Shown: positions 19,604-63,028 of the stretch, in pieces | How positions within the stretch are numbered: position 1 is the stretch's first letter | Layout of the letters: each line of letters opens with the position of its first letter | Assembly (NCBI GenBank): GCA_019456255.1 | Contig: VRUG01000009.1 | Location: 20,037-84,036, forward strand | Source: Planctomycetota bacterium | GTDB lineage: Bacteria > Planctomycetota > Phycisphaerae > Sedimentisphaerales > Anaerobacaceae | Direction: 5' to 3' | Length of the DNA stretch: 64,000 bases | Translations under genes and position numbers: made by a program | Notes under the pieces: model-generated | What the model was told of the DNA's origin: nothing | Databases searched by the model: none | What the model saw: the letters and a program-made list of their open reading frames with translations, nothing else

Positions 19604-20865
19604 TGAACTATTGTAAGAGGTGTTTATATCCAGAAAATGCAAAACCTACTATCATCTTTGATGAGCAGGGAGTATGTAGTGGTTGTCGTTACCACGAGTC
19701 AAGGCAGACCATAGACTGGTCTGAGAGGGAAAAACTACTACGTGAAATCCTTGCTGAATATAAACAGAAAGCAAAAGAAGCTGGTAACCCTTACGATTGT
19801 ATTATTCCAGTCAGCGGTGGAAAGGACAGCCATTATCAAGTTTACTTGATGAAAGTAGTCTACGGGATGAATCCCTTGCTAGTTACATACAACCATACTT
19901 TTAATACAAAGCTAGGTTTAAGGAACCTTAATAATATAGTGGAGAAGTTTGGAGTTGATTTGATTAGATTTACTGCTAATACAGAATCTGTTAGAAAGAT
20001 ATCTAGGTATATGGTGAAGACAGTAGGTGACATTACCTGGCATTATCATGCTGGTATTAGAACTTTTCCTTTTCAAGTGTCAGTCAAGTGGAACATTCCA
20101 CTTGTAATATGGGGGGAACACGGCTTCGCTGAAATTGTTGGGTTGGTTTCCCTTGAAGACATGGTAGAGTTTACTAAGTGGACAAGGCAAGAACATGATA
20201 TGAGGGGATACGAACCAGAAGACTTAATTAATGAGGAGAGTGGAATAACTAGTTTAGACGTAGCTCCCTACGTTTTTCCGACAGAAGAACAAATATCCGA
20301 GACTGGGATGAGAGGAATTTACTTGAGCAACTTTATGTACTGGGACGCTTTGGAACAAGCAAAGGAAATGGTCCACCGCTATGACTTTGGTTTACGAGAA
20401 GTTCCAAATGAAAGGTCTTTCGTTTTGCATGCCAAGAGTGATGACCACGCTAATGACGTTCATGACTACCTGAAGTATTTGAAGTTTGGATATGGAAGAG
20501 CGACTGACGATGCTACTACAGAAATAAGGCATGGGCGTATGACAAGAGAAGAAGGTACACAATTAGTTAGCGAGTACGACTCTGTGAGACCTTCTACTTT
20601 GCAATCGTATTTGGATTTTATGGGAATTACGGAACAGACTTTTCTAGACTGGGTTGAGCCTATGAGAGATTTGAATATATGGGAAAAACATAAGTCTACT
20701 GAGATGTGGGTGGTAAAGGATTCTATTGTACTAGATGATAGAGAAGTCGATGATGCTCGTCTGCTTCTAGTTCGTCCAGAAGACAGGACATTTGGTAGTA
20801 ATAATAAGCGGTTTTTTTGTAGGGATAAGTCTAAACATATAGAATATTCTCCTATTACTTTATAA
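19603..20865 (+). CDS. N-acetyl sugar amidotransferase (PP-loop; WbuX/WbpG/PseA-like), copy 1
   Basis: N-terminal CKRC...GVCSGC zinc knuckle, PVSGGKDSHYQ PP-loop, and FGYGRATDDA...IRHGRMTREEG. Confidence 0.8.
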   Translation: MNYCKRCLYPENAKPTIIFDEQGVCSGCRYHESRQTIDWSEREKLLREILAEYKQKAKEAGNPYDCIIPVSGGKDSHYQVYLMKVVYGMNPLLVTYNHTFNTKLGLRNLNNIVEKFGVDLIRFTANTESVRKISRYMVKTVGDITWHYHAGIRTFPFQVSVKWNIPLVIWGEHGFAEIVGLVSLEDMVEFTKWTRQEHDMRGYEPEDLINEESGITSLDVAPYVFPTEEQISETGMRGIYLSNFMYWDALEQAKEMVHRYDFGLREVPNERSFVLHAKSDDHANDVHDYLKYLKFGYGRATDDATTEIRHGRMTREEGTQLVSEYDSVRPSTLQSYLDFMGITEQTFLDWVEPMRDLNIWEKHKSTEMWVVKDSIVLDDREVDDARLLLVRPEDRTFGSNNKRFFCRDKSKHIEYSPITL

Positions 20866-48800: not shown

Positions 48801-49045
48801 TGAAAAATAACATACGGAAAAAACTAATACACTGCCTTCGAAATCCAAGTAGAATACACGTTATATCTGCAAGAAGTAAGTGGTCGGTAAGGCGAGAAAC
48901 TAGTAAGAGAGCTATCAAAATAGTTTCTTCTAGAGAAAGTGCCGTTCAAGTTGCTTTACTAGCTAAAGACTGGACTACGATCGTTGTTCACGACGTAAAC
49001 GGCGAAACCGATTTTCGAACAGTAAAGGAGTACGTTCTGAGATGA
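48800..49045 (+). CDS. DUF2188-like protein
   Basis: [34 protein letters not shown]...IVVHDVNGE fits the DUF2188 pattern. TAATG-coupled. Confidence 0.4.
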
Positions 49046-50895
49046 AGAAAGTTACTCCAGTACCAAGAAGAAAAAAAATCCCACAAAAGAAAGTCATACC
49101 TAGTCAAAAGTTCTTAGATCAGACTAGTCATTTACCTCCAGATGACGTGTGTGTTGAGGCGCTATGTTATTACATCAAAAATAGACGGTATCCAAGTGAT
49201 TGGTTCGAGTTACCTATAGAATCTGATACTGGGTTTACGTACTTCGGAGAAATATTCGCCGAAAGTTTTGATAGAAGGTATAGAGTTAAGAATTGCCACG
49301 AAGAGTTGTTTCAATGCTTAATAGAAAACGGCATCGAAGATAGAGCGGTTTTATATTGGTATATCACTGAATTCCTTAACTTAAATATTCCAAGGCAAAG
49401 AACATGTGAGTTGTTTAATCCGGATAAACACGAGGCAGACTATCCTCATTGTTCTCCCTTCGATTTAGTAGCGGACATGTTCTTTGAGGAGGTAAGGAAC
49501 GTTATAGTTTTCGCGAATAGAACTGGCGGGAAAACGACTAATGTAGCAGTGTTAAATCACTTAGATATGGCATTTAAAGGCGGTTGTGAGGTTGCCAGTG
49601 CTGGAGCTATTAAAGAGCAAGCAAATAAGGTTTACAAGTACTTTTTGGGGTTTCATAAGAACTCGACTCTAAGTAGTTTGTATGAGAGGATTCCTACGAA
49701 ATCTAAGACGATCTACACCAATCACTCAGAACAGGAAGTTATTACTGGAACCGTGACTGGTTTGAATTCTCCTCATCCCCAGAAAGTGCGGTTAGATGAG
49801 GTTGAGTTGATTGAATGGGACGTAATCCAAGAAGCACATAGTATGAGTATGAGTAAAGAGGGAATTACTGGTCAAAACCTGTTTCTTAGTACTAGAAAGT
49901 ACGACTCCGGAACCTTTCAGAGACTACTTGAAGAAGCCGACGATACTGGAATGGTCGTTTATTCTTGGTGTATATGGGAAATCTTAGAGAAGTGCACTTT
50001 CGATTGTAAGGAAAAGACTGAAGACGAGTGCCCAGTTTGGGGTAAACCAGTAGTCTGTAGAGGGATGGCGCATAGCTGTACTGGGTACTACAAGATAGAA
50101 GACTTTATCGACAAAGTCAGAATGTTAAATAAGGACGTTCTAGACGCTCAATGGTTCAACAAGAAGCCTAGTACTGAGTTTTTAGTCTATGGAAAAAATT
50201 GGAATAAAGGAGTTCATTACGTTCCCGACGTTCAGTCAATAGATTTTAGTGAACATACAATAACAATGAGCTCTGTTGACTTTGGAAGTAGTCCTGGTCA
50301 TCCCTTTGTGTACCAGAAGGCCATAGTTGATTTTGCTGACGTTGTTAGGGCGATAGAAGAGGTCGATGAAACTGTTGAGGAGTTAAAATTCAAGTTGAAG
50401 TTTGCTATCTACTACGAATATAGGTCTGCTAGTAGTACTATGGCGAATCATTCCCAGATGATAAAGAACAGTCCAGATTATAAGAAGGGAGAAATAATAT
50501 TTGCTGATCCCTCTGCTAAACAGGCAAGAATAGACCTTGACATGATCTATAATATAGAGACGTATTCTGCAGTAAATGCGTTAGAAGATGGAATTGATGT
50601 TGTCAGAGCTCATTTAGATACGTACTTTGATTATGGAGATGGCGCGAAAGAGAAGAGTTATTACTATATAATAGACAGGTATCTCGATTCAGACTTACCT
50701 GGTACCGAAATCGAATTTGAAAAGTACAAGTATCCGCGTGGTATTGACGGAAAACCTATTAGAAGAAAACCTATCCCTATGGATGACCACGGGCTTGATT
50801 GTTCGCGGTACATTATCCAGTCTGCTTATCATATTATTTTAGAAATAGCTTATCCTGAACAAGAAAATGTAGAAGAGTCTGGTTACTGGTTTTAA
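49042..50895 (+). CDS. terL: terminase large subunit
   Basis: 617 aa. ANRTGGKTT (Walker A), [10 protein letters not shown] (Walker B), FADPSA and [10 protein letters not shown] nuclease-domain acidic motifs. Lies immediately upstream of the portal gene. Confidence 0.8.
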
Positions 50896-50928
50896 GAAGT
50901 TGCTCAAACTGACTACTATTATGGATAA

Positions 50929-50953
50929 TAACAATAATTATTAATTATTGTTA
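50929..50953. promoter_or_regulatory. perfect 12-bp-arm AT-rich palindrome between terminase and portal genes
   Basis: taacaataatta-t-taattattgtta (50929-50953) is fully self-complementary around t50941. Confidence 0.4.
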
Positions 50954-50978
50954 AAGTTCCTTATTAGGGAGGAATTCA

Positions 50979-52523
50979 ATGTTTGACATATGGAGGCTTA
51001 AACGTAAGTTAGTTAGAGAGAACCTTGAGTTTGAAACTAATCAATTAGCAGTCGCTAATTCAACTCTTGAAAACGCTCTTGAGGCTAGTAGAAGAGTCCA
51101 AGAGGAACCTGACCATAATATGTGGTTCCAACATGGACAAGGAAGTGATATTGGAACTGGGACGAGTTTGTTGAGCTCCGGTTTTAGTAAATACGACCAT
51201 TACCAGATGCTTGACGAGTCTTGGAGGCAGTACCATACAAACTTGTTTGCTAGGGCCGTTGTCAGAAATCTTGGTAAGTTTATTTTGGGAAGGGGTCCAA
51301 CAATTAAACCAGTTTCTAAGAATGTAAAGGTAATGGAGAAGTGGAATGAGTTCGTGATGGACAACGCTTGGTCTCTTAGGGAGAAGGAATTAGTAAATCG
51401 AGTTTTCCGAGACGGAGAAGTATTCCTCAGATTTTTTGTAGACGAAAATAATGGCAAGATCAAAACTAGGTTTATTAGAGCCCAGACCGTCAGGAACCCG
51501 CCTAGTAGTTCTGAATGGAATAAGGGGGAAGTCGTTTCTTTTGGTGTCGGAACTAATCCCGACGACGTAGAAGAGCCATTAACTTACTATATATGTAATC
51601 CTATGGATGGTAGTTTAAAAGAAAAGATTGATGCCAAAGACGTTTTGCATATTAAGATACTTACGGATTCCGATATGAAGAGGGGAATTAGTTTTCTCTT
51701 AATTGCACTTCCAATGTTAGGTAAGTACTCTAGTTGGCTTGATGATAGGGTTATACTTAACAAAACTAGGTCTGCTATTGCTCTTATAAAGACGATAGAA
51801 GGGAATAGTGGAGTCGTTACTAATATCCGAGATAATCAGCGAGCAGAGACCCAGGATTTTGACAAGAACAAGTTGAAGGCCTTTCGCCCTGGAACCGTCT
51901 TGACTGCTACTAAGGGGATAACTTACGACATGTTGTCCCCGAAGATAAATGCAGCAGACGTGAAAGACGATGGGCGGTCAATGTTGCTAGCAGTAGCAGC
52001 GGGGTGTGGACTGCCTGAGATGATGCTAACGGCCGACTACAGTAATGCGAATTACTCGAGTAGTATGATAGCTCAGAATCCTTTTGTTAGAGAAGTAGAA
52101 GATTGGCAAGACTTCTTTGCGTATCCCTATAAACTTACTTTTGCTCGAGTTATTCAAGCTAATATCGACTTTGGTGAATTGCCAGAGAACGAAGAAACTG
52201 GGTGTGAGGTTGAGTTCCCTCCTCTTATTACTGCAGATACCCTTAAGAACAATAAAGCAAGAGAAATACAACATAAGAATAAAATTATTTCTAAAAAAAC
52301 TTGGCAAATGAAAGAGGGATTAGATCCAGAGACAGAAGAAGATAATATGGGTGACGAACAAGATAAAGACATTTACAAGACCCCATTTAACATGCCTACC
52401 GAGCCAGTCAACCAGTTTGGTGCTGAGGATGATGAGGTAGACGAGGAGCTTGAGGATGATGAAGAGTATGATGAATTAGAGGATGAAGAAGTAGATCCTG
52501 ATGAAGAAGACGAGCCTGAATAA
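50979..52523 (+). CDS. portal protein
   Basis: 514 aa, positioned between terL and the MuF-like gene. Strongly acidic C-terminal tail. Confidence 0.7.
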   Translation: MFDIWRLKRKLVRENLEFETNQLAVANSTLENALEASRRVQEEPDHNMWFQHGQGSDIGTGTSLLSSGFSKYDHYQMLDESWRQYHTNLFARAVVRNLGKFILGRGPTIKPVSKNVKVMEKWNEFVMDNAWSLREKELVNRVFRDGEVFLRFFVDENNGKIKTRFIRAQTVRNPPSSSEWNKGEVVSFGVGTNPDDVEEPLTYYICNPMDGSLKEKIDAKDVLHIKILTDSDMKRGISFLLIALPMLGKYSSWLDDRVILNKTRSAIALIKTIEGNSGVVTNIRDNQRAETQDFDKNKLKAFRPGTVLTATKGITYDMLSPKINAADVKDDGRSMLLAVAAGCGLPEMMLTADYSNANYSSSMIAQNPFVREVEDWQDFFAYPYKLTFARVIQANIDFGELPENEETGCEVEFPPLITADTLKNNKAREIQHKNKIISKKTWQMKEGLDPETEEDNMGDEQDKDIYKTPFNMPTEPVNQFGAEDDEVDEELEDDEEYDELEDEEVDPDEEDEPE

Positions 52524-55500
52524 TGGCTGCTGTAAATTCTGAGCTTCGCGATTTAATATTAAAGAGACAACACTACATTCAGTCTTTTGAGAATGGTAGT
52601 ATACGTGACATTGCTGCCCACTACGATGCTGCTAAACCTGCCCTTGTTACACAACTTGCCCGCCTGCAATCCTTTGAAGAAAGATCTGGCCTTGTACAAC
52701 CTACCTTGCAATTCAGAATGAATCGTCTTAATGCTCAAATTAACGAGATAGACGTTGTTGTAAAATCTGCTAATAGGGGTGCGATAAATTCCCTTACTAG
52801 CGACTTAGAAGGATTTGCTAGATTAGAGAAGGGACATTACGAAGGTCTCTTAGGTGCCCAGTTTGGAGCAATAGGAGTGAACATTGTTAGGATTCCTTTT
52901 GAACACGTAGACCGGATGGTTAGGACTCCACTTGGTGGACTTGTCTACAATGAACGAATGTTCAACACTTATAGAAGCGCCATGACGGAAATGAAGAGTG
53001 AACTAACTCAGTCTTTGATCTTAGGCGAAGATATGGCAAAGGCGTCGAGGCGATTAGTAGGAGTTGGTGATAGATTTGGTGGGACGGTTGGGAGGAAGTT
53101 AAAAGAGAGGGCGGAGGTAATAGCAAGGACTGAAATAATTAGAGTTAGCAATGAAGTTAGTTCTGGTATTTACGACGCTAATACAGATGTCCTTAAAGGT
53201 ATGCAATACATAGCAACCTTGGATAATCGTACATGTTTAGTATGTGCTAGAAGTGATGGGAAAGTTTTCTACTTTAACAAGAACCCAATAAGTCAAGGGG
53301 AGAAGCCAACAAGACATCCAAGGTGTAGATGTTCGCTTATGCCTGTTTCTAAGACGTGGAAAGAGTTAGGCGCAGATATGCAAGAACCTCTAGAGGGTGG
53401 TAGACCTTTTGTTTACAAAGGAAAACCTCCACCTGGGTTAAGTAAAAGGATGTTACAGTTCCGTGGAAACCCTACACGTTGGTCTGGCCAAGTTCCAGCG
53501 TCGCTTAAATACCCAGATTGGTTAAAAGCAATGGATATTGACGACCCAGAGTTTGTTCGTGATATCCTTGGTAATAAGAAGTACGGGTTGTGGCGGAGTG
53601 GAAAAGTCCAACTTAAAGAGATGGCTAAGAACAATAAGGTTCTTACGCTAAAACAACTTGACGACTTAGTTGGCGGCCAGTACGTTTATGGTCCTCCTTT
53701 AGCAAAGGCTCCAATAGGTGCTACCAGACAAGTAGAGTGGGAAATAGCAAAGAAGAACCTTGACGATTACATGGACTACATGAGGGGTTTAAAGACTACT
53801 AGAATAGATCCAGCAGATATTACTGGTGCCCAGATTGACGAACTAATAAGTACTGTTAAGGGTGGCCCTAAACTTACTACTCATAGGTTTTTAAAAGGAT
53901 TAAGAGAAAAAGAAAGAGGTGCTGCTAAAAAACTTGGAAAGAAAGTTCCCGAACCTAAAGTAGTAGTACCTAAAGCTACAAAAGTTACTCCACCATCCTT
54001 CGTAGAGAAAGAATTAAAGAAAGAAGCGGCAAAGAAGTCTAAAGCGTTAGAAAAAGTTGAAGAGGAAATTGGTGTTGAAAATGAGGTAACTAGTTACTTG
54101 ACTGGGGAAATCGAATTTATGGAGAGAAGGTTAAAGGCAAGTGATGTGGATCTTGACATAAAAGTAAATATTGAAAAAGAGCTTGCTGGCTACAAAAAGG
54201 TAATTAAAAGCAGAGACGACTACGACATTGCTTACAACAACTATGTAGCGGTACTTAGTGAAGATGCTTATAAAAAAGAACGAAGGAATCTATTTAAGTC
54301 AATTGTTGATGTTGAAGACATTGAAGATGAAGTAGAGGCACGTAGGTTACTTAATCTAATAGTTGATGAGACTAGTTATATTCCAGCTGACTTGTTAGCT
54401 GACATGAAAACTCACTCAAAACTTAGATTTGAGATTTTAGACGAGACTGGTCGTGCTAATTTCGATCCGACTGGGGGAGAACCACTTAAAATTTCTTTGT
54501 TTACTAAAAGGGATGTAACTGGAAAGTGGGACTTGGAAGCTCCGTCGCATGAACTTGCCCATGCTATAGACAATCATTTTAGTGGTACTAACGGAAGTGT
54601 TGGGATGGAATGGCAGACTGGTAAATTTGTTGCTTCCAAAGAAGGAGATGATATACGTAAATGGTTTGACGGTCATAAAACTGGTAAAATTGGAGAGTAT
54701 GAAAATGGAGATGGTGAATTTTGGAGAGATAATTGGATAGATGATTACGAAGGTAGATACTACGATGACGTTGATGGAGATGGAGTAGAATGGTGGTCTG
54801 TAAACGTGCACCGGTACCAGGGGTACTTATCTGAAAAAAGGTCACTTACGAAAAAACTTTTAGATGAAGTTGATCCTTCTGATAAAAGTTTTCTTGCGTT
54901 AGTTAAAAAAGTAGACGACGAAGCCCTTAAGTCTACGGAGTGGGGAAAAGCTAAAAACTTTTATCCAAATCTTACAAAACATATTGAGAAAAAGTTTGAT
55001 CCTGAAAAAAGGTTCATGTCCTTTATACCAGGGAAGGTTACAAAGAAGGTAGTACCACCAGTAGTGAAGCCACCTCTTAAGGTCGTAAAAAAGAAGGTAG
55101 TACCGAAAAAAGTAGTAGTGCCTACTCCTACGCCTACGGGAATAGTTGCACCTCCTCAACAAGTTTTTGATTCTTTAGACTTTGTGCGCGATTTAATATT
55201 ATCTGGTGGAAAACCAAATAAGAAAGTTTTTGATCTGGTTACTAGTGCTGGTGTTGACTGGTTGGATCAAACTGTGACTAAAGGTACGTATAGGTTGTAT
55301 CGTGGGATTGGTCTAATTGAGGATAGGTTAACTGCTTCTCAGATTAGAATTGTTAACTCTTTAAAAGATGGCGACGAACTTCCAAGTTTTTTATTTAAAC
55401 AACACGTTAATGTCGCTTCTTATACTAAAAAGAAATCTCTAGCGAAGTCTTATTCGGAAGGTAAGATGCAAATTGTAGTAGAAGTTGACGCCCCTAGTGG

Positions 55501-58051
55501 AAAAGTTTTAGTCGACTTAGAAAATTTACCAGATCTTCTTAAGAAGTCGAAGCTTAAGAAAAGTCTGTTTGAACCAACAACTCCCTTTGATTCAGATGAT
55601 TTTGGATACCTGAAAGCTGACAAAGAGGTTTTCCTTCTTGAACCTGTAAAAGCTAGGATTATATCTATAAAGGGTAAGTTAAACCCTAAACACGTAGATG
55701 TTGGCGTTCTCGTTCCAAAAGTGGATAAACTCGTTCTTACAAAGAAGGTTGTAGCTAAACCGTTAGCCGTACCCCAGAAAATTCAAGCACCTTCTCCTAA
55801 AAAGTTAAAGAAAGCGATTAAGGGTAGCCCTGAAGCTGTTGCTATAAAAGCAGGTAAAGACCTTAGAGCCTATAAGAGAAGGATGAAAACGTCTATTAAT
55901 GTTGATATTAATAAGATGAAAGACGGGCAAATTAGAGCGTTAATACGTAGTACTAAGGGTGGCCCTAAACTTAATATGCTTAAAAAGTTCATTAAGTTAA
56001 GAAAGGTAGAGAGAGATGCTTTGGCGAAAGTTGGAAAGAAAGCTTTAGTGACGAAAAAGCTAGTACCTACTAAGAAGGTTGTTAAGAAAGTAAAAAAGGT
56101 TGCTGTTAAACCTGTAGTAGGGACAGAACCAGTACAGCTACAAAAAGAACTTAAAGGTATTATGAGTAGGATTAAAGAGATAGGAAAAACTATATCAGAC
56201 CAAGGTGGAGTTATTGACGCAAAATCTATAAAAGCTTTTATTAAAGAAGATCGTTTATTTCAACAACAATATCAAAGTTCCATGAAGGGGTATTTAGATC
56301 AGATAAAGAACAAAAAATTGTGGATGGAATGGAAGAAGATTCAAGATAGAAGATTAATAATTGTAAAGAAACTGAAACCTGCGATTACTCCTGAAAAGTT
56401 TGTTAAAGCAGTAAAGTTAAATTTTGTGAAAGAGATAAAACCAGTACGTAAAAAAGGTATACCTAATAAGAGAACTCTTCCTAGCTCTACTTCTAGTATT
56501 AAAGCTAAACAGATTCGGTCAAACAGTAAAAAGGCGGAAGCTAAGTTCCTAAGGGACTTAGATGTAAAATACGATAAACTTATAGAAGATGCTAAGCAGT
56601 TTACTGAAACGAGAAGGGACGCGCCAACTGATCAACTTAGAGATTATGTAAACAAGTTTACTGGAAATTCGTACTCAAAACCTGAAATTGAAAGGTTAAA
56701 GAAAACGTACCTTGCTTACCGAGACGATGTACTTAAAGCTCGGAAAACTAACTTTTATGTACAAGAAGACATGGTATTTAAAGGTCCTTGGGTATTCCCA
56801 AACGGGACGACTGGGTTTATTCAAATAGACGATGCTGAACTGTACAGGTTATTTAGCCAAGGCAGACACAAAGAGGTTAAGATAATTTCAGACGCAGACG
56901 CTGCGTTTGGAGATATTGGTGAGACCTTAAAGATTTCTAAAAAGACTGGTTGGTATAAATACCAACAAGACGTTCGTGTATCTGAAGCATTTGAGAATTT
57001 TTATCGTCCAGAAAGAGAAAAGCTAATCGAAAAGACAACTGAAATTGTTAATAGAAGATTAGAGAAGAAAAACGCGTTCTATACTTCTAAACGACAAGTT
57101 GCTCTCGAATTCAATACTGGCAATAACGCTAAAGACGCTAGTAATTATATAACTAGCCTTGACATGGATGTACAAGACTCTATTAGAAGATATACTAATG
57201 GGTCAGACGTAGACGTAAATGGTAATCTGAGATTTGGAAAGAAGATTACTGGTGGAGAAAGCGGAGATAAGTTAATAAATGAGAGAGTTTTTACTGATTT
57301 AGATGAAATTTTTGCTAGAGCTCCACATTATGAGGGAAAATCTTACCGGGGAGCTGTTTATAGCCAAAGTGAAGTTGATGAGTTGGAGCGACTGGCAAAA
57401 TCTAATGGAGTGATGACAGACAATGGGTTTATGTCTACGTCTGCCGGTAGAGAAGAAGCGGCAGCATTTGCAATTGATGTTGAAAAGGTAGTTAAAGGAA
57501 GAGACATTCCTGTTTTATTTGAAATAGAAGGAAAAAGTGGTTTTTACCTTGAATCGATGACTGACTTTGCTGGAGAGAGGGAAGTTTTATTTAACCGATC
57601 TACTTCGTTTAAAGTTAAAGGTTTCAGGTCTGGAAAAATTGCTATGGAAGATGGACCTAGGGTAGCGGCTAAGATAGTTAAACTTGAAGAGGTAACTAAG
57701 AAAGTCAAAATTGAAGCTCCGCCAGTAAAGATTAGTATACCATCGAAAGTGGTTAAGAAGGTTGTACCTAAAAAGGCAATACCTAAAAGACTGTCTAGCG
57801 ATGCAAAGTGGTTGGAAGACAAAGGGCAAAAAGAGTGGGGAAGTATTAAACGTATGGTGGTCAAGAAACTTAAAGGTTTGGGAGAGCCATCAGACGAGAT
57901 TGAGGAAGAGGAAGAGTTAGATAACGTTTCTCTAACTCAACTTAACTACATCAAAAAGTTTGTAGGTAAAAAGACTCCAGAGGCTAGGGCACTTTCGAAG
58001 ATTATTAAAATAAGAAGAGCTTTAAGAAAGTTAAGTAAGTTAAGGAGGTAA
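52523..58051 (+). CDS. MuF/SPP1-gp7-family head morphogenesis domain fused to a giant polyvalent protein (HExxH motif, degenerate and canonical ADP-ribosyltransferase domains)
   Basis: 1842 aa. The MuF core is ARTEI.R......L...ATLD.RTC..C...DGKV......P..HP.CRC (to about 53350). HELAH lies at 54548-54562. An ART-like YRG/ASYT/DKE region spans about 55298-55627. A C-terminal ART has YRG (57344), STS (57434) and ERE (57575-57583). K/V/P-rich linkers and about 70-aa internal repeats (STVKGGPKL / STKGGPKL) are present. Confidence 0.75.
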   Translation: MAAVNSELRDLILKRQHYIQSFENGSIRDIAAHYDAAKPALVTQLARLQSFEERSGLVQPTLQFRMNRLNAQINEIDVVVKSANRGAINSLTSDLEGFARLEKGHYEGLLGAQFGAIGVNIVRIPFEHVDRMVRTPLGGLVYNERMFNTYRSAMTEMKSELTQSLILGEDMAKASRRLVGVGDRFGGTVGRKLKERAEVIARTEIIRVSNEVSSGIYDANTDVLKGMQYIATLDNRTCLVCARSDGKVFYFNKNPISQGEKPTRHPRCRCSLMPVSKTWKELGADMQEPLEGGRPFVYKGKPPPGLSKRMLQFRGNPTRWSGQVPASLKYPDWLKAMDIDDPEFVRDILGNKKYGLWRSGKVQLKEMAKNNKVLTLKQLDDLVGGQYVYGPPLAKAPIGATRQVEWEIAKKNLDDYMDYMRGLKTTRIDPADITGAQIDELISTVKGGPKLTTHRFLKGLREKERGAAKKLGKKVPEPKVVVPKATKVTPPSFVEKELKKEAAKKSKALEKVEEEIGVENEVTSYLTGEIEFMERRLKASDVDLDIKVNIEKELAGYKKVIKSRDDYDIAYNNYVAVLSEDAYKKERRNLFKSIVDVEDIEDEVEARRLLNLIVDETSYIPADLLADMKTHSKLRFEILDETGRANFDPTGGEPLKISLFTKRDVTGKWDLEAPSHELAHAIDNHFSGTNGSVGMEWQTGKFVASKEGDDIRKWFDGHKTGKIGEYENGDGEFWRDNWIDDYEGRYYDDVDGDGVEWWSVNVHRYQGYLSEKRSLTKKLLDEVDPSDKSFLALVKKVDDEALKSTEWGKAKNFYPNLTKHIEKKFDPEKRFMSFIPGKVTKKVVPPVVKPPLKVVKKKVVPKKVVVPTPTPTGIVAPPQQVFDSLDFVRDLILSGGKPNKKVFDLVTSAGVDWLDQTVTKGTYRLYRGIGLIEDRLTASQIRIVNSLKDGDELPSFLFKQHVNVASYTKKKSLAKSYSEGKMQIVVEVDAPSGKVLVDLENLPDLLKKSKLKKSLFEPTTPFDSDDFGYLKADKEVFLLEPVKARIISIKGKLNPKHVDVGVLVPKVDKLVLTKKVVAKPLAVPQKIQAPSPKKLKKAIKGSPEAVAIKAGKDLRAYKRRMKTSINVDINKMKDGQIRALIRSTKGGPKLNMLKKFIKLRKVERDALAKVGKKALVTKKLVPTKKVVKKVKKVAVKPVVGTEPVQLQKELKGIMSRIKEIGKTISDQGGVIDAKSIKAFIKEDRLFQQQYQSSMKGYLDQIKNKKLWMEWKKIQDRRLIIVKKLKPAITPEKFVKAVKLNFVKEIKPVRKKGIPNKRTLPSSTSSIKAKQIRSNSKKAEAKFLRDLDVKYDKLIEDAKQFTETRRDAPTDQLRDYVNKFTGNSYSKPEIERLKKTYLAYRDDVLKARKTNFYVQEDMVFKGPWVFPNGTTGFIQIDDAELYRLFSQGRHKEVKIISDADAAFGDIGETLKISKKTGWYKYQQDVRVSEAFENFYRPEREKLIEKTTEIVNRRLEKKNAFYTSKRQVALEFNTGNNAKDASNYITSLDMDVQDSIRRYTNGSDVDVNGNLRFGKKITGGESGDKLINERVFTDLDEIFARAPHYEGKSYRGAVYSQSEVDELERLAKSNGVMTDNGFMSTSAGREEAAAFAIDVEKVVKGRDIPVLFEIEGKSGFYLESMTDFAGEREVLFNRSTSFKVKGFRSGKIAMEDGPRVAAKIVKLEEVTKKVKIEAPPVKISIPSKVVKKVVPKKAIPKRLSSDAKWLEDKGQKEWGSIKRMVVKKLKGLGEPSDEIEEEEELDNVSLTQLNYIKKFVGKKTPEARALSKIIKIRRALRKLSKLRR

Positions 58052-58053
58052 TT

Positions 58054-58272
58054 GTGGCTAAACTAGATCCAAGAGCACACCATTTTGTTTCAGATGGAGA
58101 TACGTTTCACCATCCAATTTGTAATGACTGCGTTTGGTATTTAACAGATGCAACCTGTCAAGCGTTTCCAGACGGGATCTTAGACATAGTACTTACTGGG
58201 GAAAATAACCATTCACAAAAACTGCCTGGTCAAATTGGAGATTTTGTGTTTAAGAAGAAGGAGGGAGCATGA
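58054..58272 (+). CDS. hypothetical protein
   Basis: 72 aa, GTG 5 nt after aaggagg. Confidence 0.45.
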   Translation: MAKLDPRAHHFVSDGDTFHHPICNDCVWYLTDATCQAFPDGILDIVLTGENNHSQKLPGQIGDFVFKKKEGA

Positions 58273-58550
58273 AAGTCAATGTTAGTAAGGACAATATAAA
58301 AGGTAGTGTTGAGTACCTTGAAAAAATAAAGGACTTCATCGTTTCAATAGACGATTCGGTTATTAGTGAGGCTATACAAAGGTATTTAACAACTGAACGG
58401 GAGTTCAAGATTCCAGAAAGTCAGAAGATTGATGATTACAGAATTGATAGTGCTAAACCTGCGGAAAACAGAACGTATTTTGAGCTTTCTTTAAATACTC
58501 TCTACGCTAACACTGGTGTTTTTGTACACTGGGATACTTTAGTTGAATAA
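58269..58550 (+). CDS. hypothetical protein
   Basis: 93 aa, ATGA-coupled. Confidence 0.45.
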   Translation: MKVNVSKDNIKGSVEYLEKIKDFIVSIDDSVISEAIQRYLTTEREFKIPESQKIDDYRIDSAKPAENRTYFELSLNTLYANTGVFVHWDTLVE

Positions 58551-58595
58551 GTTGTCAAAACTATATCCCTTTAGATATACTTATAGTTATATAAT
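58551..58595 (+). promoter_or_regulatory. candidate sigma70-like promoter ahead of the head-assembly genes
   Basis: TTGTCA (58551-58556), TATACT (58576-58581; 19-nt spacer) and a perfect TATAAT (58590-58595) in a 62-nt gap. Confidence 0.2.
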
Positions 58596-58612
58596 ATACG
58601 AGCAGGCAGGAA

Positions 58613-58792
58613 ATGCCAAAGCAATTAGAAGATTGTATTAAGAAGGTTATGGCGCAGGGCAAAACTAGGGACGAAGCTGTCCCTATTTGCGTTGCTTCGA
58701 CTGGTCTTAAAATGAAGGAAGACGAAGTCGAGAAGCCTAAACATACATTTATTGAAAACTGTGTTGGTCCTGGATACTGGAAATTTAGTTAA
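58613..58792 (+). CDS. hypothetical small protein
   Basis: 59-aa ORF absent from the supplied track (MPKQLEDCIKKVMAQGKTRDEAVPICVAS...). Confidence 0.35.
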   Translation: MPKQLEDCIKKVMAQGKTRDEAVPICVASTGLKMKEDEVEKPKHTFIENCVGPGYWKFS

Positions 58793-58816
58793 CTTGTTTA
58801 CAGGAGACATACCACA

Positions 58817-60223
58817 ATGGCTATTAAAGTTAAGTTAATCCATCAAATCCGCGACGTTACAGACTCGTGGGATGGGAACATGTTTAAGGACGTTGTCGAG
58901 GCTGGGATAGACGAGCCTAGTCATACTATACAAAATGTTTGCGTATTTGGTTCACGCCATAGTAAAAATGGTTACACCTATCAAGACACTGCAATAGACA
59001 GCCTTACTAACTTCACAAGTGGCGCCAAATTCTTTATAAACCACCCTTCAAAAAGTGAATCTAAAGACAGAGATGGTGTTAGGAATATGAAAGATTGGGC
59101 AGGTGTGTTTACTAACGCACATCGTGAAGGAGAAAAGGTTTTTGCTGACTTAGGTGTTCGACCGGTTTTTTGGGAGTTAGTAAAAGACGTTGCTACTATG
59201 AGACCTCAGGGGGTAGGGAACTCTATTAATTCACGAGTTAAGGTTTTTAAAGATGAAAACGGAAAAGAGCACGTAGTAGATATAGAAGCTCTAAAAAGTA
59301 TTGATTTAGTTGCTTCTGCCGCAACGACTCAGAATTTGTTTGAGAGTGCAATAGAAAATGCTAATAGTGAAAGGGACGACTTTGTCGAGTCTCTTTCAGA
59401 GGGAGAAGAGAAGGCTTTTATTTTTCACAACCTATCAGTTCTTAGTGAGGGACTCCTTGCTGAGAAGATTAAAGAAAAAGAAGTGATGAGGGCGATTAGC
59501 AATCTCAATTGGATGGCAGCTGATGTTATAGAAGAGATTTTGAAGGATAAGAAGAAGAATTTTAAAGACAAGAAGTCTGATATAAGTAGTATTTTAGACG
59601 ACTTGGAGTCTCAAATCGGAAAGATCATGTCTGGAAAGAAAAAATCTTCTAACGATTCTAACTCTCCAGAACTTTTATTTCACAAAACCGAACAGGAGGA
59701 TGACATGGATTTCACAAAACTGACTTTGGAAGACATTTTAAAGCAAAGGCCGGACATACTTGACGCAGCTAAAGCGAAGTACGAAGACGCTGCTAGAATC
59801 GCTGGGATTGAGGAGTCTAATGATAAGCTGACTAAAGCTAACGAAGGCCTGGTTAGTAACAATACAGATTTGACCAAGAAAGTTGAAGAGCTAACTAAAA
59901 AGGTCGAAAGTCTTTCGAAAGATCTCGACGCTTTCCAGACGAAAGATAAGGCTAATAAGAAAGAAGCTTTTATTTCTGAAAAAATAAAAGAGTCGAAGCT
60001 TCCTGACGAAGCTATTTCTGACGTTTTTAAAGCGGACTTGATGTTGAAGGCAGAGGCCGAGATTGAAGTCGCTCTTGCTGATAGAAAGGGACTTTGGACT
60101 GCTTCGTCTGGAAAGGTTGTGAATTCTGGAGAGGAGTTTGTTCCTGAAGGTGGCGAGCCCAAGACGGTTACTAAAGAGAAGAAAGAATCCGCGGTGGAAA
60201 AGTTCAAGTCGACTTTAAAGTAA
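58817..60223 (+). CDS. scaffolding protein, possibly with N-terminal prohead-protease-like domain
   Basis: 468 aa with a globular N-terminal half and a long K/E-rich coiled-coil C-terminal half. Lies between the portal/MuF genes and the capsid genes. Confidence 0.55.
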   Translation: MAIKVKLIHQIRDVTDSWDGNMFKDVVEAGIDEPSHTIQNVCVFGSRHSKNGYTYQDTAIDSLTNFTSGAKFFINHPSKSESKDRDGVRNMKDWAGVFTNAHREGEKVFADLGVRPVFWELVKDVATMRPQGVGNSINSRVKVFKDENGKEHVVDIEALKSIDLVASAATTQNLFESAIENANSERDDFVESLSEGEEKAFIFHNLSVLSEGLLAEKIKEKEVMRAISNLNWMAADVIEEILKDKKKNFKDKKSDISSILDDLESQIGKIMSGKKKSSNDSNSPELLFHKTEQEDDMDFTKLTLEDILKQRPDILDAAKAKYEDAARIAGIEESNDKLTKANEGLVSNNTDLTKKVEELTKKVESLSKDLDAFQTKDKANKKEAFISEKIKESKLPDEAISDVFKADLMLKAEAEIEVALADRKGLWTASSGKVVNSGEEFVPEGGEPKTVTKEKKESAVEKFKSTLK

Positions 60224-60271
60224 GTTGTTTTCAGTAAAAACTTTTGACCTTTATTTTAGGAGGTTTCACAA

Positions 60272-60799
60272 ATGGCACAAAGACAAAGACATTTACGTGG
60301 TGAAACTAACGAAGTCACAGTAGATGTTCACGGGCACACCGTGATAGAAAAAGGTGATTTCGTTTGTGTGAACAATACGGCAGCGCTTTTTAAGACTGCT
60401 CAAGCCCCAGAAACTAGTGTGGACTTCTACGCGTATCCGGTTAATTACCTTGGTGGAGTTACTAATGGTTACTATGATAACACTTTCTTAGGAATAGCAA
60501 TGAAGGGAAGTGTCAGTGGTACTACTGAAAAGATACCAGTAGCAACTTCGGGTGTTTTCAGAATGCCATTGAAGACTCAAGCCGGAGTTACCGTCACTCG
60601 TATCGTTTCTGGCGCGACATCTGCCGCAAAAGCAGCGTACCCACAAAAGGTCATAACCAAGACTCTTGCAGAACTTACGTCGTCTTACTTTTGTGTGGTT
60701 GGATTGTGCGTCAAGACCGCGTCCGGAGCAACCGCGTGCGATTTTGAGTTGATTACTCGCTACGCTGGGGTTACGAATGCAGATTGGAATGCGCTGTAA
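60272..60799 (+). CDS. head decoration-like protein (DUF2190-like), paralog 1
   Basis: 175 aa with EKGDFVCV...FLGIAMKGSVSG...IPVATSGVF. Position is analogous to lambda gpD, between scaffold and MCP. Confidence 0.5.
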   Translation: MAQRQRHLRGETNEVTVDVHGHTVIEKGDFVCVNNTAALFKTAQAPETSVDFYAYPVNYLGGVTNGYYDNTFLGIAMKGSVSGTTEKIPVATSGVFRMPLKTQAGVTVTRIVSGATSAAKAAYPQKVITKTLAELTSSYFCVVGLCVKTASGATACDFELITRYAGVTNADWNAL

Positions 60800-60841
60800 T
60801 TTTCTCTAACGCATTGATAATAGACTAAGGAGGTTCCACAA

Positions 60842-61375
60842 ATGGCACAAAAACAAAGGCACCTTCGTGGGAATCCTAATGAGATTACCATAGATGTGCA
60901 TGGTCATACCGTAATAGAAAAAGGAGACTTTGTTTGCGTAAACAATACTGCGGCACTCTTTAAGACCGCTAAAGCTCCGGAAACTAGTGCGGATTTTTAC
61001 TGTTTTCCAATTGATTACCTTGGTGGTACTACTAACGGTTACATGGACGAAACTTTTCTCGGAATAGCAATGAAGGGAAGTGTCAGTGGTACTACTGAAA
61101 AGATACCAGTAGCAACTTCGGGTGTTTTTAGGATGCCTCTAGTTACCCAAACTGGGGTAACAATTACTCAACTAGTTTCTGGTGCGACGTCTGCTACTGC
61201 AACTTTCTACGCTCAAAAGGCGGTAAGTAAGACTCTTGCAGAGCTTACAACTGCGTCAAGTTACTTTAACATCGTTGGGCTTTGTGTAAAAACAGAATCT
61301 GGTGCTACTAACGTTGACTTCAAACTCGTTACGAGGTACTCTGGAGTTACTTCTGCAGATTTCTGGGCACTTTAA
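60842..61375 (+). CDS. head decoration-like protein, paralog 2
   Basis: 177 aa, clearly a close paralog of paralog 1. Includes a 68-nt block identical at DNA level. Confidence 0.5.
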   Translation: MAQKQRHLRGNPNEITIDVHGHTVIEKGDFVCVNNTAALFKTAKAPETSADFYCFPIDYLGGTTNGYMDETFLGIAMKGSVSGTTEKIPVATSGVFRMPLVTQTGVTITQLVSGATSATATFYAQKAVSKTLAELTTASSYFNIVGLCVKTESGATNVDFKLVTRYSGVTSADFWAL

Positions 61376-61396
61376 TCACGGGGGTCATGAAATGCT

Positions 61397-61918
61397 GTGG
61401 TTGATTATGATCGTAAACTATACAGGGAATCTTGGGGTAGGAACAGGCAGTGTATTATAGACATTCACGGCAACATCGAAGTTTCGAAAGGGGATTTGTT
61501 ATTTGTCGACAAATCGAACGGGTTGCGCTCGCAGGGAGCGTCTACTGCAGACTGGTATGGGTATCCGTTCAGCAAACTGTCTGGTTCGACGGTAACATTA
61601 GCAAGCAACAGGAATCTTGCGGCTACTAATTTCTTAGGAGTTGCAGCGTGGCACTCAGATAGTGGTGTCACAGAAAAGTTAGCAGTTCACGTTGGTGGTT
61701 TATTCTTGTTTGGTTTAAAGAATGTTAGGACTTTGAAAGTTGGACAACAAGTCATCCCTGCCGGATCAGGAGTTACATTGTATAATCAGAAAGTTACAAC
61801 TTCAGTTTCCGGATCTTCAGACCATGTTGGGTTAGTTGCTAGGGGTGGATCTTTCCAGAGTGTAGTTGAGTTCAGTCTACTTACACTTTTTAGTGGTAAT
61901 ACCAATTTAATTACGTAA
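61397..61918 (+). CDS. head decoration-like protein, divergent paralog 3
   Basis: 173 aa with the same pattern (SKGDLLFV...FLGVAAWHSDSGVTEKLAVHVGGLF). GTG start. Confidence 0.45.
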   Translation: MVDYDRKLYRESWGRNRQCIIDIHGNIEVSKGDLLFVDKSNGLRSQGASTADWYGYPFSKLSGSTVTLASNRNLAATNFLGVAAWHSDSGVTEKLAVHVGGLFLFGLKNVRTLKVGQQVIPAGSGVTLYNQKVTTSVSGSSDHVGLVARGGSFQSVVEFSLLTLFSGNTNLIT

Positions 61919-61936
61919 GAAGGAGGACTATAAAAA

Positions 61937-63028
61937 ATGATAAGAAACAGATTAGGTGTAGCTCTCAGGGATATGCATGAGTCTTCAGGCAACGCCGGGA
62001 CCGTAGAGGCCATTGAGGGTATGCTTGAAAAGGGTGAATTGAATCCTAACGATTTTTCTCTTAAGGAATGTTGGGAGGCTTTTGAGCGAGATCCTCAAAC
62101 GGGCCTTGTTAGAGACATATCAGAAGCAGTTTCTACAGACATGTTCCCCAAAATTACTGGGGTACTTATCAGTGCGACTCTTATTAAAGCTTACAACTCA
62201 GTCAAGACTATTGGTAAATTGCTTACTCATACCGTTAAGTCGAATATGGAAATTGAGACTTACGCGGGTTTTAATGCGGTTGAAATGCCGGAAGAAGTCC
62301 AGCAGGGAGCTCCGTATAATGACAGTGGGATTGGTGAGAAATTCGTAACTGTACCTCACCAGAAATATGGTCGGATTATCTCAATTACGGAAGAAATGAT
62401 CTACTTTGATAAGACTAATCAGATCATTGCTCGTGCTAAAGGAATTGGGAAAAAGGCCGCGCAGTACAAAGAGAGACTGATTGTTAATGGTGTACAAGAT
62501 ATAAATACGAATGTGTACAGGCCAAGTGGTGTAGCGGCCGCGTTCTACAGGACTACTGCTGTTGGAGATAGGGAACAAAACTCCAGAGCAACTACTCCCT
62601 TTGGTGAGGTTGGATTGAGAGAAGCTTTTAAGCTCATGCACATTCAGCAAGATGAGAACGATGATTACATTACTATTGATCCGGCTAATGTTTACGCGAT
62701 CTTTCCTTTCGACCTGTGGGTTGAAGCTGTTCAGATGCAAAAAAGTACTCTCGTACCTGAGGGAACTGAGAATGCTGTAAATATTTGGAAGGGTGCTTTT
62801 ACTCCAATTACCAGCCCTTATGTTACAGTTCAAAGTGCGACTACTTGGTTTCTGGGAGATTTTGCAGAAGACTTCATTTGGTCTGAGGTATGGCCGTTGC
62901 AGACTTTCTCTTCAAAACCGGGTCATGAAGACGAGTTCAATAAAGACATCAAGGCAAAGCATAAAGTCCGTTTTTACGGTCAGGTTGCTGCACTTGACGA
63001 CAAACACGCGTATAAGTTCACTGCCTAA
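61937..63028 (+). CDS. major capsid protein (HK97-fold by position and size)
   Basis: 363 aa. Last gene of the head module, with a strong RBS (aaggagga), followed by a strong intrinsic terminator. Confidence 0.7.
   Translation: MIRNRLGVALRDMHESSGNAGTVEAIEGMLEKGELNPNDFSLKECWEAFERDPQTGLVRDISEAVSTDMFPKITGVLISATLIKAYNSVKTIGKLLTHTVKSNMEIETYAGFNAVEMPEEVQQGAPYNDSGIGEKFVTVPHQKYGRIISITEEMIYFDKTNQIIARAKGIGKKAAQYKERLIVNGVQDINTNVYRPSGVAAAFYRTTAVGDREQNSRATTPFGEVGLREAFKLMHIQQDENDDYITIDPANVYAIFPFDLWVEAVQMQKSTLVPEGTENAVNIWKGAFTPITSPYVTVQSATTWFLGDFAEDFIWSEVWPLQTFSSKPGHEDEFNKDIKAKHKVRFYGQVAALDDKHAYKFTA

Follow-up and report, generated by a model that had tools for sequence, protein, structure and literature searches.

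A giant MuF-anchored polyvalent protein with peptidase-like and ADP-ribosyltransferase-type domains in the head module of an uncultured phage

Why would a gene that stands directly behind a phage portal gene, at the place of a head-morphogenesis protein, encode a chain of 1842 amino acids (aa) with several enzyme-like domains? We address this question for an open reading frame (ORF) at positions 52523–58051 of the forward strand of a 64,000-nucleotide window, to which all coordinates without a locus prefix refer. The window corresponds to positions 20037–84036 of contig C340 (VRUG01000009.1), which is 111,222 bp long and one of 340 contigs in a Planctomycetota metagenome-assembled genome (MAG). 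The encoded protein, P0001, combines in one chain, and within a head module, a MuF domain, a predicted peptidase domain and two ADP-ribosyltransferase (ART)-type domains, the combination that characterizes polyvalent proteins, and it is a further member of the already described MuF-anchored polyvalent effector proteins. New at a smaller scale are the exact domain string, two families missed by the annotation libraries, a rare repeated basic module and a 333-aa stretch without relatives. As to function, we consider it probable that P0001 is a virion-internal polyvalent effector protein, packaged through its MuF domain and expelled with the DNA, which would act as a multi-effector in the host.

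The MuF-anchored chain and its domains

The features of the gene, all on the + strand, are as follows.

52523..58051, +, whole gene: MuF-anchored polyvalent protein, 1842 aa, 208 kDa, isoelectric point (pI) 9.6, net charge +93
52523..53698 (aa 1–392), +, MuF / SPP1-gp7 head-morphogenesis domain: PF04233, TIGR01641, PHROG 241
53741..53959 (aa 407–479), +, basic repeat module, copy A: contains KGGPKL
54200..55021 (aa 560–833), +, predicted zincin-like metallopeptidase domain: family alignment, AlphaFold model, Foldseek, weak profile matches
55022..55156 (aa 834–878), +, K/V/P-rich basic linker: 75% K+V+P, pI 10.95
55157..55681 (aa 879–1053), +, predicted divergent ART-fold domain, “ARTL1”: putative triad R927, S966-Y-T968, D1033-K-E1035
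55835..56056 (aa 1105–1178), +, basic repeat module, copy B: net charge +18
56123..57121 (aa 1201–1533), +, orphan region: basic, 333 aa, no family match
57122..57652 (aa 1534–1710), +, canonical R-S-E ADP-ribosyltransferase domain: PF03496; R1609, S1638-T-S1640, E1685-R-E1687
57908..58042 (aa ~1796–1840), +, suggested third module copy, degenerate: alignment with module 3 of the sibling protein P0005

The ORF is a single uninterrupted frame, open throughout as the original prediction had it, and a script reproduced every motif coordinate given there. HELAH falls at aa 676–680 (nucleotides (nt) 54548–54562), YRG occurs twice, at aa 926 (nt 55298) and aa 1608 (nt 57344), and DKE lies at aa 1033–1035 (nt 55619–55627), with STS at aa 1638 (nt 57434) and ERE at aa 1685 (nt 57575). 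KGGPKL also occurs twice, at aa 446 and aa 1145.

The N-terminal part is the MuF/SPP1-gp7 domain that had been proposed, with two models exceeding their curated cut-offs: PF04233 matches aa 157–273 at 52.1 bits (cut-off 29.6) and TIGR01641 scores 48.8 bits (cut-off 39.65). PHROG 241 extends the assignment over aa 1–382 (E = 5e-52). This part of the chain is 56–57% identical to the MuF parts of two relatives, the protein P0002 and the MuF gene of locus L033, to which we return below.

The C-terminal ART had been called canonical, and the designation holds. PF03496 is matched well above its cut-off of 23.4 bits, both by the whole protein (45.1 bits, E = 9e-12) and by the isolated segment (51.6 bits, E = 1e-13), and the R-S-E triad is intact. 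In a phmmer alignment to binary-toxin ART chains of the PDB (E = 9e-5) the STS and ExE motifs are in register, and an alignment of five related ART domains shows no variation in R, STS or ExE. ART-PolyVal (PF18760), an ART model of the H-Y-D type, is present in the relative P0137; it has no match in P0001, in which both ART-type domains are R-S-E.

The original prediction had taken the combination of domains and the size of the protein as telling. The architecture stands, but the protein is not exceptional in either respect, as giants of 1700–2200 aa with MuF, metallopeptidase and ART domains recur in viral contigs. The exact order MuF-module-peptidase-ARTL1-module-orphan-ART-module had no second case among 150 representatives.

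Two families missed by the annotation libraries

Both remaining enzyme-like domains belong to families for which an exhaustive HMMER search, covering 1.84 billion representatives, was needed; a word-based homologue search with aa 500–1540 had returned three proteins, all of them through ARTL1. The HELAH domain has ∼75 relatives in the exhaustive search, typically proteins of ∼650 aa with a MuF domain in front, and its family is present in 30 IMG/VR viral loci, among them MuF-peptidase-ART frames of 1699–2227 aa. Invariant in 22 aligned relatives are H676, E677, H680 and D683, a G-D-G motif, a W, Y742-E-G-R745 and E756, and the signature of the family reads HExxHxxD...NGDG..W.DNW...YEGR...EWW. 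An Asp three residues beyond HExxH is a trait of the widespread phage-type peptidase of polyvalent proteins (PMC5512222).

The profile matches of this domain are weak but coherent. Homologues match zincin families only in Pfam (Reprolysin_4, ATLF, M90 and M3; E = 0.005–0.08), and the family profile searched against the PDB finds M34-type peptidases only, aligned at the HExxH helix with non-significant E-values of 0.25–0.6. The AlphaFold (AF2) model of the domain, with a predicted local distance difference test score (pLDDT) of 85, places HExxH in a helix spanning residues 114–127 (model numbering). The invariant E756 opens a second model helix, 196–223, and the invariant E743 precedes it; this position makes E756 a candidate for the third metal ligand. 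The best solved structure in Foldseek is PPEP-2 (6fpc), with a probability of 0.90, a template-modeling (TM) score of 0.59 by target length and E = 0.24. Family conservation, profile matches and modeled fold thus agree with the earlier description of HELAH as zincin-type, and they suggest a zincin-like metallopeptidase whose family is specific to phages and has not been catalogued.

The second family is that of ARTL1, a region described in the original prediction merely as ART-like. The search returned ∼77 relatives, counted as clusters at 50% identity, of which 65 are stand-alone proteins of ∼165–235 aa and the remainder lie inside large proteins, mostly with MuF. Across 57 ARTL1 sequences with a mean column identity of 24%, R927 and G928 are each kept in 57/57, T or S at position 968 in 57/57 and E1035 in 56/56, while S966 is found in 45/57 and D or E at position 1033 in 51/57, so that the pattern R / S-x-[ST] / [DE]-x-E is conserved. 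When the ARTL1 alignment is compared with the canonical ART alignment by hhalign (probability 86%, E = 5e-6), YRG is registered to YRG, S-Y-T to S-T-S and D-K-E to E-x-E, and a hidden Markov model (HMM) of the canonical alignment also matches ARTL1 at aa 966–1006.

The AlphaFold (AF2) model of ARTL1 (pLDDT 91.5, predicted TM score 0.87) has the strand order of an ART, in which strand 1 carries the Arg, strand 2 carries S-x-T and leads into a helix, and strand 5 opens with the Glu. Foldseek searches against the PDB give a top 50 made up nearly entirely of ADP-ribosyltransferases, at TM ∼0.4 and none at E ≤ 0.001; against BFVD there are 14 matches at E ≤ 1e-3 with TM 0.5–0.6, including annotated phage ADP-ribosylases and MuF-domain proteins. 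The ART-like call was right, because the profiles match in register, the model is confident and shows the ART order, and the fold matches are dominated by ARTs. Judged by its alignments and its model, ARTL1 represents a divergent family with an ART fold of the R-S-E type, overlooked by the standard libraries, and it may define an uncatalogued family of R-S-E ADP-ribosyltransferases, most of them stand-alone phage proteins.

An ART fold might nevertheless serve another purpose. ARTL1 could bind or degrade NAD+ rather than transfer ADP-ribose, or it could be a catalytically dead adaptor comparable to the N-terminal pseudo-ARTs of binary toxins, either of which would leave a single working ART in P0001. 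The weakness of the fold matches (TM 0.4–0.6, PDB E ≥ 0.03) and the lack of a match to any sequence family fit such a role, as do the variability of S966 and the identity of the first acidic residue, which is D, not E or Q, in 34/57 sequences. A canonical ART moreover stands alongside ARTL1 in P0001–P0004 and P0114. However, the invariance of R927, G928 and E1035 at so low a mean column identity argues for a retained active site, and most members of the family, being stand-alone, cannot serve a fused partner. We consider a non-transferase ARTL1 unlikely.

We also note two features of ARTL1 relatives. The stand-alone homologue P0006 (174 aa; L001:134–658) lies among small ORFs, and a PhageMetallopep protein and a deaminase of the dCMP/MafB19 type are encoded there as well, surroundings that resemble a phage early or accessory region and not a head module. 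P0129 and P0144, both large proteins with MuF and ARTL1, show a weak Intein_splicing match (PF14890, 23–24 bits versus a cut-off of 35.8) just after MuF and possibly contain inteins.

Basic modules, linkers and cargo exchange

The acidic catalytic domains (pI ∼4.9) are embedded in linkers and modules with a pI of 10–11. The original prediction described a module of ∼70 aa occurring at least twice, and the two copies are readily confirmed: A and B align locally with a score of 105, compared with 30 ± 5 for shuffled sequences (z = 15), and this distance from the shuffles identifies a real internal duplication. A weaker, degenerate third copy at the C terminus is suggested only by its alignment to a module of P0005, by z = 3 against module B and by an HMM match that is circular, as the HMM includes the third copy itself. 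The K/V/P-rich linkers noted earlier are likewise present, at six places where 40-aa windows exceed 50% K+V+P (about aa 461–500, 821–880, 1041–1100, 1161–1220, 1281–1320 and 1721–1760), and a search of the linkers for tandem repeats at the DNA level gave nothing meaningful.

Outside P0001 the module is found only in the L033 locus, where P0005 contains it three times and the MuF gene ends with a single copy. No relative was found in IMG/VR, and the module has no match in Pfam (E ≤ 10), PHROGs or NCBIfam. Among solved structures the module most resembles the DNA-binding protein GapR, but a GapR/DUF2312-like identity is no more than a lead: the PDB GapR chains give non-significant E-values of 0.36–0.56, and PF10073 finds nothing in six frames of the window's genome. 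One possible role for this basic KGGPKL module of ∼73 aa is that of a loading or tethering element of an undescribed kind, DNA-binding or self-associating, which would attach effector chains to the complex of MuF, portal and DNA. We put forward this reading, and that of ARTL1 as an uncatalogued R-S-E ART family, tentatively and as less likely than not.

Between module B and the canonical ART lies the orphan region, for which no relatives were found among the 1.84 billion representatives or in the fetched loci, and no match in Pfam (E ≤ 10), PHROGs or NCBIfam. Its final ∼35 aa align to the stretch that precedes the ART in P0005. Comparison by hhalign with the ART, ARTL1 and peptidase profiles gives probabilities of ≤1%. 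A degenerate second ART lobe in the style of the binary toxins finds no support in these comparisons, and the phmmer alignment of aa 1442–1534 to a binary-toxin chain has low posterior probabilities.

The siblings of this phage show how the cargo behind MuF changes. Locus L034, which encodes P0002, is syntenic with the window, with identities of 51% for the terL-like protein, 59% for the portal, 57% for the scaffold-like protein, 51–59% for the decoration-like proteins and 75% for the capsid protein. The P0002 gene (L034:4123–8301, 1392 aa) also overlaps the portal stop, and its MuF and ARTL1 domains are 56% and 54% identical to those of P0001. The rest of P0002 differs: it has no module, a different HExxH domain and a C-terminal ART that is only ∼25% identical. 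Close relatives thus reshuffle their cargo while keeping their capsid genes, as one would expect of conflict genes. Two side observations, made by eye, concern P0002 and P0003: their HExxH domain has a helix with the pattern GEF[FY]AE, and the two proteins share a stretch with a D...E-x-K pattern that resembles a PD-(D/E)xK nuclease.

In L033 the same chain is divided. MuF and module A form a separate gene of 475 aa, 57% identical to aa 4–482 of P0001, which ends at a TAA. This stop is followed (L033:2062–2100) by 12 in-frame codons resembling the K/V/P linker (PLPVVTKKVKPI) and then, in the same frame, by the effector gene of 1406 aa, which encodes P0005, such that one stop splits what is a single gene in the window. 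The order in P0005 is module, peptidase, degenerate module, ART, module and a further ART-type domain. Three origins of the in-frame TAA are conceivable, namely nonsense variation, a mistake in the assembly and programmed read-through; TAA also terminates two other genes on the L033 contig. This layout hints that the module alone could recruit an effector chain lacking MuF, or that read-through of the stop could set how much plain MuF is made relative to the fusion of MuF and effector.

Head-module setting, proposed delivery and known systems

Two neighbors of the gene, both on the + strand, bear on its function.

50979..52523, +, portal protein, lambda family: PF05136 (E = 6e-23), PHROG 21; one-base overlap with the MuF gene
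58269..58550, +, 93-aa ORF: matches PHROG 26403, function not annotated

The ATG of the 1842-aa gene overlaps the stop codon of the portal gene as TAATG, and the portal gene is itself preceded by a terL-like gene. Downstream, the 93-aa ORF is followed by a 468-aa coiled-coil scaffold-like gene, three decoration-like paralogues of ∼175 aa and an HK97-type capsid gene. The three tandem paralogues (window 60272–61918) have only two counterparts in L034 (178 and 170 aa, 51–59% identity). Compared with the portals of isolated phages, this one reaches at most 25% identity, and a scan for promoters and terminators gave counts no higher than the shuffle expectation.

The position after the portal gene fits delivery of P0001 with the DNA. 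For MuF-anchored effectors as a class, packaging and delivery are what the published model proposes (PMC5512222, PMC9503650, PMC5576092, PMC6316719), and the portal is reported to direct SPP1 gp7 to the procapsid (PMC6316719). By analogy, the MuF/gp7 domain of P0001 would dock on the portal and thereby put a few copies inside the procapsid. The remaining chain would consist of folded domains strung on basic K/V/P linkers and ∼73-aa modules, probably lying along the packaged DNA, and would be expelled together with the DNA upon infection. The two ART domains, of which the canonical one is arginine-type, could then draw on the NAD+ of the host and ADP-ribosylate its components, much as T4 Alt does. 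Most likely, the metallopeptidase would free the domains by cleavage at, or close to, the linkers or modules; alternatively, it may attack a host protein.

The same setting would also accommodate a protein that acts mainly in the producer cell or the procapsid, with MuF and the basic parts serving head assembly or DNA condensation, the peptidase serving head maturation or self-processing, and the ARTs modifying phage or host proteins late in infection. No prohead protease was recognized in the head module (window 49042–63028), the basicity of the chain is extreme at a net charge of +93, SPP1 gp7 is itself toxin-free and helps infection to start (PMC6316719), and intracapsid self-processing by such peptidases was considered by Iyer et al. 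(PMC5512222). However, a wide variation of cargo between siblings with conserved capsid genes is unexpected for an assembly function, and intact triads in two ART domains are hard to square with a structural role. Nor does the match to phrog_595, “head maturation protease,” lend support: it falls on aa 65–515 (MuF) and aa 1548–1699 (ART) and not on the HExxH domain, for which reason the label looks wrong for this protein. We regard a role confined mainly to the producer cell as distinctly improbable.

A second alternative concerns the life style of the phage. MuF polymorphic toxins of temperate phages, which lysogens would use against non-immune competitors, likewise have an N-terminal MuF, C-terminal toxin-type domains and a small ORF downstream (PMC5576092). 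An immunity gene usually lies downstream of such toxins (PMC5576092), and in P0001 this place is taken by the 93-aa ORF, which would then be the immunity protein; its sequence gives no indication of its role, and it matches only a PHROG of unannotated function. In the syntenic L034, three different small ORFs occupy the same place. The assembly contains 43 matches to tyrosine integrases, 0 of them on C340 (serine integrases, repressors and other lysogeny genes were outside this search). C340 also differs from the rest of the MAG in G+C content (39.4% versus 43.8%) and has no 22-mer in common with the rest of the bin, hence neither a CRISPR spacer nor a prophage remnant. Considered together, these data make a lysogen-borne toxin very improbable.

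With no common 22-mer and no tyrosine integrase, C340 resembles the genome of a free phage that was binned together with the MAG; a search for a terminal repeat of 20–200 bases found none. By its RpoB, the MAG belongs to the Planctomycetota, close to Phycisphaerae/Sedimentisphaerales MAGs, to which the identity is ≤81%. The link of this phage to a Planctomycetota host (Phycisphaerae/Sedimentisphaerales-like) comes from binning alone and is unproven.

Several points weigh against delivery of P0001 as a multi-effector. The peptidase domain has no match in Pfam (E ≤ 10), PHROGs or NCBIfam, and against solved structures Foldseek yields weak E-values, with the 0.24 to PPEP-2 as the best. ARTL1 and 56 homologues have no match in Pfam, PHROGs, NCBIfam or the PDB sequences, S966 is substituted in 12/57 of the family, and the best Foldseek E-value against solved structures is 0.03. 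Some 330 aa (aa 1201–1533) are without explanation. The phage is uncultured and the protein is known here from sequence and models alone, and a chain of 208 kDa would have to pass the tail channel, either whole or in fragments.

The locus nevertheless supplies clean domain boundaries for one polyvalent head protein and two families that the annotation libraries miss, a MuF-linked predicted zincin and a divergent R-S-E ART that occurs both alone and within MuF proteins. Swapping of cargo between siblings with conserved capsid genes is also the pattern expected of counter-defense weaponry. The bin, if it does represent the host, belongs to a group with very few known phages. Polyvalent head proteins are regarded as the earliest phage proteins at work in a newly infected cell, and to our knowledge almost none has been tested.

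Phage T4 Alt is an Arg-specific ADP-ribosyltransferase that is packaged in the head and injected. P0001 resembles it in its R-S-E ART of the Alt/VIP2/C2/C3 type and in its presumed delivery from the capsid, and phage “ADP-ribosylase” models are among the fold matches of ARTL1. Unlike P0001, Alt is a single-domain protein that is targeted by a short cleaved leader rather than by MuF, and no close sequence relationship between the two was found. The M34-type zincins PPEP-1/PPEP-2 provide the best fold match of the peptidase domain and its sole PDB profile matches, at the HExxHxxD helix and with E-values (0.24–0.6) that are not significant. In contrast to these enzymes, the domain of P0001 has a large family-specific insert (NGDG...W.DNW...YEGR) and a long helical N-terminal extension.

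SPP1 gp7 and Mu gpF define the family of the N-terminal 392 aa and show the same order of portal and then MuF, but enzymatic cargo is absent from SPP1 gp7 (PMC6316719). Proteins in which MuF is fused to an ART of the Alt/VIP2 type or to a metallopeptidase have been documented before (PMC9503650, PMC5576092). The MuF polymorphic toxins (Jamet et al., 2017, PMC5576092), which include the Enterococcus faecalis EFV MuF-ART toxin, share with P0001 the N-terminal MuF, ART and metallopeptidase cargo towards the C terminus and a small ORF behind the gene. These toxins typically have one toxin domain and belong to temperate phages, whereas P0001 has three to four cargo domains and is encoded on a 111-kb contig without a tyrosine integrase.

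The polyvalent proteins (Iyer, Burroughs, Anand, de Souza and Aravind, 2017, PMC5512222) differ from P0001 in some respects. Their ART-PolyVal domain is of the H-Y-D type and not R-S-E, the peptidase and ARTL1 match no Pfam model from that work, and the repeated basic module of P0001 is otherwise found only in the L033 locus. What P0001 has in common with them is a giant chain in a virion gene context, a phage-type peptidase in which HExxH is followed by an Asp three residues on, and the combination of the hub domains MuF, a predicted zincin and ART.

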